A stretch of 64,000 bases of DNA, taken from positions 5,270,001-5,334,000 of the forward strand of contig OX597842.1 of assembly GCA_951406725.2 (NCBI GenBank), given 5' to 3'. Shown one piece after another: positions 1,037 through 1,996 of this stretch. Origin of the DNA: Octopus vulgaris (Eukaryota). A program made the translations under genes and the position numbers. Positions within the stretch are counted from its first letter, which is position 1; each line of letters starts with the position of its first letter. The notes under the pieces are model-generated. The model did not search any database, had not been told where the DNA came from, and was given only the letters and a program-made list of their open reading frames with translations.

Positions 1037-1996
1037 CCTTTCAGTGTTCATATTTATTCTGTCAAATGTAATACTAATTAATTCATTTTGTTTCCAACTA
1101 TTCAAGCATTTATTTAGATTTCACAGATATTTGTCCTCACCTTGTTTGTTGTTAACTTAACATTTCGACTGATATACCCTCCAGCCTTCATCAGGTGTCT
1201 TGGGAAATTTCAAACCTGGGTTCTCATTCCTAAGGTATTTTTCAATGTTATTATCATCATTATTATTCAGTGTCACTGCCTGGAATTGAACTCGGAATCT
1301 TGGGGTTAGTAGCCCATGCTCTTAACCACTACACTGTGGACATATGGCGTAGTGGTTAAGAGCGCGGGCTACTAACCCCAAGATTCCGAGTTCAATTCCA
1401 GGCAGTGACCTGAATAATAATAACAACAATGAAAAATACCTTAGGAATGAGAACCCAGGTTTGAAATTTCCCCAAGAGACCTGATGAAGGCTGGAGGGTA
1501 TATCAGCTGAAACATGTTAACAAACAAGATGAGGACATTACGGAGATGTACTTGCATAGCAAGTGACCTGATCTGAGATCGTGTGCTGGAACAAAAACAA
1601 TTGCAGCGTGGAAGGTGTTTATAAGCCATTTAAGAAACACACAAAATCCATTAGATTCACTTCAATATTTAAATTTAATTTGTCTCAAAGAGACAAAAAT
1701 ATTTTGACAAATTAAATTTAAATGTTGAAGTGAATCTAATGGTTTTTGTGTGTTTCTTAAATGGCTTATAAACACCTTCCACACTGCAAGATGAGGAGAA
1801 ATATCCGTCAAATGTAAGTAATGTACATAATTCCTCATCTCTTAAATATAGAACTGTAATCAGGCATTATCTTGTCACTTCAAGATTTTGATAATGTGAT
1901 TAATTCTTAGAGTCATATTGTAGTGTTGTTGTGAGAGGTCTGATCTGGCCAAGTACAATAATTTGGCCAGGTATGGCTGGTTTTAATACTAAAGGG
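1037..1996. mobile_element. piggyBac-like MITE carrying nested palindromic insertions
   Basis: TTAA-CCTTTCAG...CTAAAGGG-TTAA ends. Confidence 0.6.
1115..1857. mobile_element. Palindromic element: head-to-head tRNA-like heads plus a hammerhead-like motif in each arm
   Basis: Arms 1115-1332 and 1348-1535 are inverted copies. A box TGGCGTAGTGG, B box GAGTTCAATTCC, then CTGATGA-a-GGCTG..CAGCT-GAAAC. Confidence 0.8.

Follow-up and report, generated by a model that had tools for sequence, protein, structure and literature searches.

An octopus Penelope/Poseidon-type retrotransposon family with a tRNA-like, promoter-like head in its terminal repeat

Introduction

Among the described Penelope-like elements (PLEs), Poseidon_Ac of the green anole (PMC11167929), Pen2, Pen2a and Pen3a of Adineta (PMC3846280) and Penelope of D. 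virilis (PMC2377424) have a single ORF that joins a reverse transcriptase (RT) to a C-terminal GIY-YIG endonuclease. The terminal repeat (pLTR) of these Penelope/Poseidon elements holds the ORF start and a hammerhead, has a palindrome at its 5′ end, and is found in insertions with an inverted 5′-truncated partner, a one-sided tail of approximately 30 nt and a target duplication of approximately 10 nt. In Adineta, the inverted pLTR pairs are reported to come with duplications of 8-10 nt, a tail of 31 nt on one side only and palindromes at the 5′ end (PMC3846280), and inverted pLTR pairs with duplications are also described for Penelope in general (PMC8557442). For the anole element, nicking and extension take place on both DNA strands and RT begins internally at two sites, the main start lies 111-118 nt past where stem II begins, and an RNA that extends to 172 nt is required (PMC11167929). 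Minimal PLE hammerheads also occur as solo motifs, or in pairs on opposite strands with 100-700 bp between them (Cervera and de la Pena 2014, PMC4209133). The promoters described for PLEs are a LINE-like internal promoter in D. virilis, which comes with an intron (PMC2377424), and a putative TATA/Inr in Adineta (PMC3846280); these descriptions include no tRNA head.

Small-RNA-derived Pol III promoters, probably from SINE insertion, are found in the terminal repeats of the TRIMp3 elements Cassandra, Helenus and Ajax, which are short non-autonomous LTR elements whose autonomous partners are argued to need Pol II (Kojima 2024, PMC10886601). The schistosome SINE-like repeats Sm-alpha and Sj-alpha have a Pol III promoter followed by a hammerhead, and are non-coding tandem repeats for which a review reports no connection between the promoter and an autonomous ORF (PMC6765202). 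Non-LTR (animal) retrozymes carry a type I hammerhead of pLTR origin (bioRxiv 10.64898/2026.07.22.740005); a term search of the text of that preprint returned neither tRNA nor Pol III. An octopus repeat annotation lists Penelope families and, in its main account, leaves their structure undescribed (PMC13282606).

Here, we analyzed a 64,000-nt stretch of Octopus vulgaris DNA (the window). The element found in it shares the Penelope/Poseidon plan given above, with an ORF of about 835 aa; unlike those elements as described, its pLTR begins with a tRNA-derived segment carrying A and B boxes, and its sense strand is without TTTT. It resembles TRIMp3 in having a promoter-like segment in the terminal repeat, and differs in that the segment lies in an autonomous coding element of another class. 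The order of promoter-like boxes and hammerhead recalls Sm-alpha and Sj-alpha, here with a coding ORF. The element in the window is an inverted pair and not a tandem array as in the non-LTR retrozymes, whereas arrays of a related family (family B) fit the latter.

Results

The window contains two head-to-head pairs of arms, at 1110-1332 (-)/1338-1537 (+) (insertion 1) and at 44691-44917 (-)/44931-45177 (+) (insertion 2), which confirms the arrangement proposed in a first-pass annotation. In insertion 1, the left arm (1110-1332, -) is an inverted pLTR copy (arm +12 to +234) with a short, tail-less end and 92% identity to the family consensus; its hammerhead core CTGATGA..GAAA lies at 1163-1194 (-), with the downstream part decayed, and its B box at 1282-1293 (-). 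Next to it lies a worn head-to-head junction (1333-1344), for which the exact form of the family, CCATATGCCYRYRGGCATATGG, is found at 459 loci. The right arm has a tRNA-Arg-like head (1338-1409, +; A box TGGCGTAGTGG at 1345-1355, B box at 1388-1399), an (AAT/AAC)n tract (1414-1431, +) and a decayed stretch from the ORF start through the hammerhead (1447-1537, +; ATG at 1447, core at 1481-1512), and its remainder, with a Penelope tail of approximately 30 nt ending in TATAGAACTG, lies at 1789-1856 (+). The segment between them (1538-1788, -), previously counted as part of the element, is an unrelated younger nested insertion with its own inversion, flanked by a near-exact 11-nt duplication (1527-1537 and 1789-1799). 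In insertion 2, the left arm (44691-44917, -; +30 to +269, core at 44775-44806) has the tail and the right arm (44931-45177, +; +1 to +240, core at 45087-45118) is tail-less, and the pair is flanked by the duplication TCTGGATGC (44683-44691 and 45179-45187). Arm identity is 86% within insertion 1 and 81-83% between insertions 1 and 2. As had been noted, the A box, the B box, the (AAT)n tract and the hammerhead-like core are present in all four window arms; the hammerhead copies are decayed in all four, and GAAACGTTGTGTT, which had been given for the arms, is retained in none of them, with the CpG or more lost in each. The family of the nested repeat at 1538-1788 has 2,001 candidates, with 96-98% identity among the top copies, and shows one fixed and one variable end, internal inversions and duplications of approximately 10 nt.

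Comparison of the arm with full-length Penelope elements, as had been suggested, proved it to be the element's own pLTR and not a separate unit. An endonuclease-like frame was found just upstream of the arm in two loci (among the best 30 loci for one arm). When the genome (G000, 2.8 Gb) was searched with the endonuclease peptide, there were 3,350 candidates, and the arm followed the endonuclease tail in 20/20 of the best loci examined; in 28 copies, the arm preceded the ORF. The ORF thus has a pLTR before and after it, as a partial tandem. In the pile-up consensus, the period is 2,654 nt and the frame about 835 codons long; the unit reads, in order, tRNA-like head (+1 to +70), (AAT)n, ATG near +115, hammerhead in frame, RT, GIY-YIG endonuclease, stop, 29 nt and the next head, and the ORF that starts at this ATG runs through the hammerhead and the supposed terminus of the arm. 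At one place the consensus has a 2-nt excess, which contains no T run and is absent in 17 of 23 copies. The RT domain matched RVT_1 (E 6e-8), and the consensus frame contains the RT motifs DKG, YGLPKIHK, GSPLSP and YVDD. Pfam gave no match on the endonuclease part of the ORF, which was assigned from its motifs and from an alignment with full-length relatives as a GIY-YIG-type C-terminal domain with C-x-C and histidines (YSIPCSC..Y.GET..EEH..DH, read from the translation). Unlike in Neptune and Nematis, the linker between RT and endonuclease has isolated cysteines only and no Zn-finger by eye on the translation. The protein search returned 64 relatives among 1,032 candidates, of which the best five (P0001-P0005) are full-length and 52-68% identical, and P0004 shares the hammerhead-encoded N-terminal peptide. 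In a quick tree, built without curated Penelope, Neptune and Nematis references and with the C-terminal segment of the query out of frame, the element grouped with these five proteins (SH-aLRT 100). A PDB search returned distant RTs only, and the viral collection searched contained no relative. The copies seen, both window insertions included, are decayed. Since the arm follows the endonuclease tail in 20/20 loci and runs into an RT-endonuclease frame begun inside it, we conclude that an autonomous Penelope/Poseidon-type element has this arm as its pLTR. The first-pass annotation was thus right to name Penelope machinery, as the arm belongs to a Penelope element that encodes RT and endonuclease; the distinct non-autonomous SINE/retrozyme that it proposed does not stand, because the ORF of the autonomous element starts within the arm.

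The hammerhead consensus that had been drawn from the four window arms, GACAC-CTGAWGA-A-GGCTG(n10)CAGCC-GAAACGTT-GTGTT, equals the family consensus from 30 arms. A 26-nt hammerhead pattern (stem II core) had 6,204 exact matches in the 2.8-Gb genome, while the reversed control had none. The 30-arm consensus and the fold of an intact copy support a minimal type I hammerhead, with CUGANGA and GAAA cores, stems I and II and a palindromic 15.2-16.2. The suggested test of stem covariation agreed with this: among 21 sequences (9 from G000 and 12 from other PLEs, so that the covariation is between families and not within family A, that of the window insertions), the named stems were paired in 79% of cells compared to 60% when shuffled, and 10 of 11 pairs showed two-sided changes. 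Like the minimal PLE hammerheads, the motif is of type I with a 5-bp stem I, an extra base before stem II, G-C at 10.1-11.1 and a palindromic ACGT replacing stem III; the ribozyme itself shows no difference from those described (PMC4209133). Rfam gave no hammerhead match at the arms. A hammerhead scan of 1.06 Mb of loci for other families returned singletons only, and no other Penelope ORF was found in the same loci, which leaves the genome without a Penelope coding control of its own. Two RNA runs from a related organism, mapped to an endonuclease-pLTR copy, gave 9,619 and 6,986 reads with equal strands and no start or end pile-ups, including at the predicted cleavage site; as the family is old and the libraries may be unstranded, these runs are uninformative on Pol III or cleavage.

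From end to end, the head of the arm can be aligned with genomic tRNAs, among which tRNA-Arg is the best match (47-49 identities in about 73 nt), with a score of 61.5 against tRNA-Arg compared to 46 for the best of 500 shuffles, in a comparison set of 27 distinct tRNAs of seven types only. On folding, the cloverleaf is lost, and ARAGORN and Rfam gave no tRNA at the arms, by which a functional tRNA was rejected. Hence, the tRNA-like Pol III-type head described earlier holds as far as its A and B boxes and its tRNA derivation are concerned; its supposed loop is not a working anticodon, since the head neither folds nor scores as a tRNA. In family B, both boxes are kept despite an insertion of approximately 10 nt between them. 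Among copies, the A and B boxes vary at 5.9% and 3.3%, compared to 4-5% at neighbouring sites, and are not clearly better conserved (near neutral). No strict A or B box was found downstream in any of 61 Penelope-like metagenome frames, 10 of which have less than 100 nt of downstream DNA and some of whose matches stop before the ORF end; these control frames came from 79 loci, with near-duplicates and some short or gapped matches excluded. From the sequence, the tRNA-Arg-like A/B-box head is integral to the pLTR of both related families, A and B. A literature search found no Penelope element whose promoter is tRNA-derived or of the Pol III type, with the proviso that supplements, Repbase and Dfam may hold the family. 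The integral tRNA-type promoter-like head, together with a terminator-free coding strand, is therefore the feature that we did not find described; the element class and the insertion form are known.

The first-pass annotation had placed a fixed terminus on every arm. Only one arm per pair has this terminus, and 76 of 85 inverted composites combine a long end (about +270) with an end approximately 30 nt shorter (about +240). The terminus as the end of the family was rejected as well, because full-length copies continue past it into the ORF. A flanking duplication of 9-14 nt was found in 43 of the 85 composites compared to 0.6% of shuffled flank pairs, in windows that took in 8 nt of the element end, so that the true lengths may be slightly shorter; the duplicated target sequences are variable and not TA. 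The two arms of one pair agree at diagnostic sites (27/30, P = 2e-5; 34/39, P = 1e-4), and both variants occur among the pairs, which shows that the pairs derive from more than one subfamily. Solo and ORF-linked arms have the same subfamily variants at similar frequencies (three sites, Fisher P = 0.20-0.75). Solo arms are far more numerous: in a sample of 75 arms chosen by hammerhead, 8 extend more than 40 nt into the upstream ORF and 20 end around the head. The 5′ ends of arms are variably truncated, and many arm ends include the first bases of the ORF continuation. Palindromes thus exist as claimed, as one of several insertion forms rather than as the element, with many arms solo or joined to the ORF. 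Because the arms of a pair share subfamily variants, the palindrome is to be read as an insertion product; each was likely made at insertion, and a replicating palindrome was rejected on the same grounds. The long ends lie 112-117 nt past the start of stem II, which matches the 111-118 nt of the anole element (PMC11167929). The minimal hammerhead, the inverted pairing, the one-sided tail and target duplications of approximately 12 nt are all already-published Penelope features. Many 5′ ends and some partner ends lie within the (AAT)n tract (family A consensus +75 to +100; for example loci L095, L343, L080 and L090), a count that is inflated by alignment breaks at expanded tracts. Since the anole endonuclease prefers ATT sites, the tract may by analogy be a self-insertion target.

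Exact 20-mers dropped 4.4-fold across the head boundary, from 3,917 at +29 to +48 to 896 at -28 to -9. Among 52 head-bearing arms (the start of contig C1, 53 rows with one duplicate dropped), 34 end at -7 to +8, 8 at +9 to +30 and 10 further upstream, and many of the arms that end at about -7 to +8 have neither a fold-back nor an inverted partner. The 28 pLTR-ORF copies start inside the pLTR in 24 cases, at the head in 2 and further upstream in 2; as only 2/28 start at the head, copies of greater length would have to arise in some other way, for example from circles or tandem templates. In the 2,654-nt sense consensus there are 13 TTT runs, 29 AAAA and no TTTT, where 4.7 TTTT are expected from a base shuffle (P = 0.006) and 3.0 on average from a synonymous-codon shuffle (P = 0.02); under Markov nulls that absorb the depletion of TT and TTT, the absence has P = 0.095 and 0.23. 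GGGG is likewise absent (P = 0.09). All 61 control Penelope frames have at least one TTTT, a comparison of a family consensus with single copies from families of other organisms. In 20 independent T-matched families there are 66 TTTT in 29.6 kb (2.2 per kb), which puts the absence from 2,654 nt at P = 0.003, and at P = 0.04 when conditioned on the 13 TTT runs. Decayed copies of the family have 18 TTTT in 65.7 kb of overlapping segments (0.27 per kb), and four other long frames of the same genome have 1-5 each per about 1 kb. In family B, there is no TTTT in one 890-nt copy and there are 4 at scattered sites in nine fragments of 140-619 nt. Taken together, the clustering of arm ends at -7 to +8 of the head and a sense consensus without TTTT suggest that a coding Penelope retrotransposon may be transcribed by Pol III from a tRNA-type head, and the tRNA-derived segment likely acts as the promoter of the element. 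Such a 5′ pile-up could also arise under any polymerase through snap-back at the boundary palindrome, because palindromes also stand at the start of rotifer pLTRs, which form head-to-head junctions as well (PMC3846280). The LINE-like internal promoter of D. virilis Penelope (PMC2377424) likewise counts against the Pol III reading.

The diverged relatives noted earlier at 26.5-29.2 kb are real, and belong to an older related family (family B; 26535-29184, -). They comprise a tRNA-like head with pLTR (28964-28664), tandem units (27760-27186 and 26606-26535) and an inverted partner (29046-29184, +), and the tandem units are split in the window by other repeats. Family B is about 70-80% identical to family A in the ORF, with the head at the same place; the ATG context is the same and in frame across a 48-nt indel, and two stops fall at likely CpG-decay sites. 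When we attempted to rebuild the ORF of family B, a 5′ query of G000 returned almost only family A copies. A derivative of family B consists of one tRNA-like head followed by tandem units of approximately 330 nt, each with a hammerhead and approximately 75 nt of ORF start. It occurs at two sites, with at least three units in the window (26535-29184, -) and five units at G000:C29:1306575-1308900 (L167-L170); a two-unit block is 93% identical between both sites, and the units differ by 20-25%. A decayed transposase fragment, seen by eye at 27760-28120 (-) and which we take to be mariner-like, splits the array in the window. Judged by its layout, this tandem derivative is the nearest thing to the Pol III retrozyme that had been proposed: head-to-tail hammerhead units without an ORF are not found in the inverted pairs, and are found in outline only in the family B arrays.

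Discussion

We consider it somewhat more probable than an even chance that the whole is best explained by an autonomous Penelope element whose tRNA-headed pLTR is read by Pol III, with palindromes formed on insertion. Pol III would initiate some 14 nt upstream of the A box and, with no TTTT in its path, would read through the ORF. As taken from the anole element (PMC11167929), the protein would nick both DNA strands, and RT would start at two sites within the 5′ repeat, which would give short cDNAs ending at the RNA start. These cDNA ends could pair via the palindrome TGCCC-AC-GGGCA to yield the head-to-head form, while hammerhead cleavage (by a dimer or protein-helped) with circularisation, or tandem templates, would account for the longer copies. 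The thousands of short insertions would then be an in vivo record of the Penelope reaction, with two start sites, one per arm, and joining by the 5′ palindrome; this record supports the in vitro anole model, and second-strand synthesis becomes testable.

A more far-reaching form of this explanation is put forward only tentatively. It holds that a captured tRNA gene replaced the Pol II promoter of an autonomous coding retrotransposon, which also cleared its whole 2.65-kb sense strand of Pol III terminators, that Pol III makes both mRNA and template, and that the ORF spans the hammerhead cut; the ORF would therefore be intact only in uncut or circular RNA. Pol III RNA is uncapped, and its translation would need explaining. 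Non-coding passengers (SINEs, Cassandra, Helenus and Ajax) are known to carry Pol III promoters, and autonomous elements are taken to depend on Pol II. If true, this rule would be broken by a Penelope lineage that codes for protein and is driven from a tRNA promoter, a 2.7-kb uncapped RNA could be translated and transposed, and there would be a route between SINEs and their drivers.

A different account, which we regard as rather unlikely and nevertheless serious, is that the head is carried along as a passenger in an otherwise ordinary Penelope pLTR, the ancestor of families A and B having received an old tRNA-derived SINE or pseudogene in its repeat; Pol II would then be the transcribing enzyme, and the 5′ pile-up would be produced by cDNA snap-back at the short palindrome. 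The head together with (AAT)n or an A-run does resemble an inserted SINE, yet the two boxes have been kept in both families, which are about 20-30% diverged. Palindromes at the 5′ ends of pLTRs have already been published (PMC3846280), whereas many octopus arms end at -5 to +8 without a fold-back or a partner. Near-full-length copies rarely start at the head (2/28), but the boundary lies 14-15 nt upstream of the A box, at the expected start point of Pol III. Not only TTTT but also GGGG is absent; the lack of TTTT is unmatched in the 61 controls. On this account, the family would be an ordinary Penelope one, which annotation tools may mislabel as a SINE or a MITE.

It is improbable that the arm is a unit in its own right, a non-autonomous Pol III SINE/retrozyme using Penelope proteins to replicate as a solo arm or a palindrome. 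The excess of solo arms (only 8/75 run into the ORF) would fit such an element, as would the promoter-like head on every complete arm and the resemblance of the family B tandem arrays to a derivative of this kind; against this, there is no arm-specific subfamily, as solo and ORF-linked arms mix at three sites, and the arms of a pair agree at diagnostic sites (27/30 and 34/39) with more than one subfamily among the pairs. Solo arms lack the approximately 60 nt beyond the tail that, by analogy with the anole protein, would be needed on the template, and many arm ends carry the initial bases of the ORF continuation. A tRNA-derived head with A and B boxes is present as in a SINE, whereas independent replication that shares only the tail of a partner is not seen, the whole arm belonging to the autonomous element. 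A MITE with the arms as terminal inverted repeats has next to no chance of being correct, since, in spite of the palindromic shape and the duplication at the ends, the idea is refuted by ends that differ by approximately 30 nt, duplications of 9-14 nt with variable sequence and not TA, variably truncated 5′ ends and arms that belong to an RT-encoding element.

Minimal-hammerhead motifs that belong to neither family A nor family B were also observed, in the window at 35211-35233 (+) and at loci L123 and L017:3057-3102, and these are probably solo pLTRs of further Penelope families. Elsewhere in the window, ARAGORN called a tRNA-Trp(CCA) at 50140-50213 (-), and a weak Rfam tRNA match lies at 42771-42841 (+).
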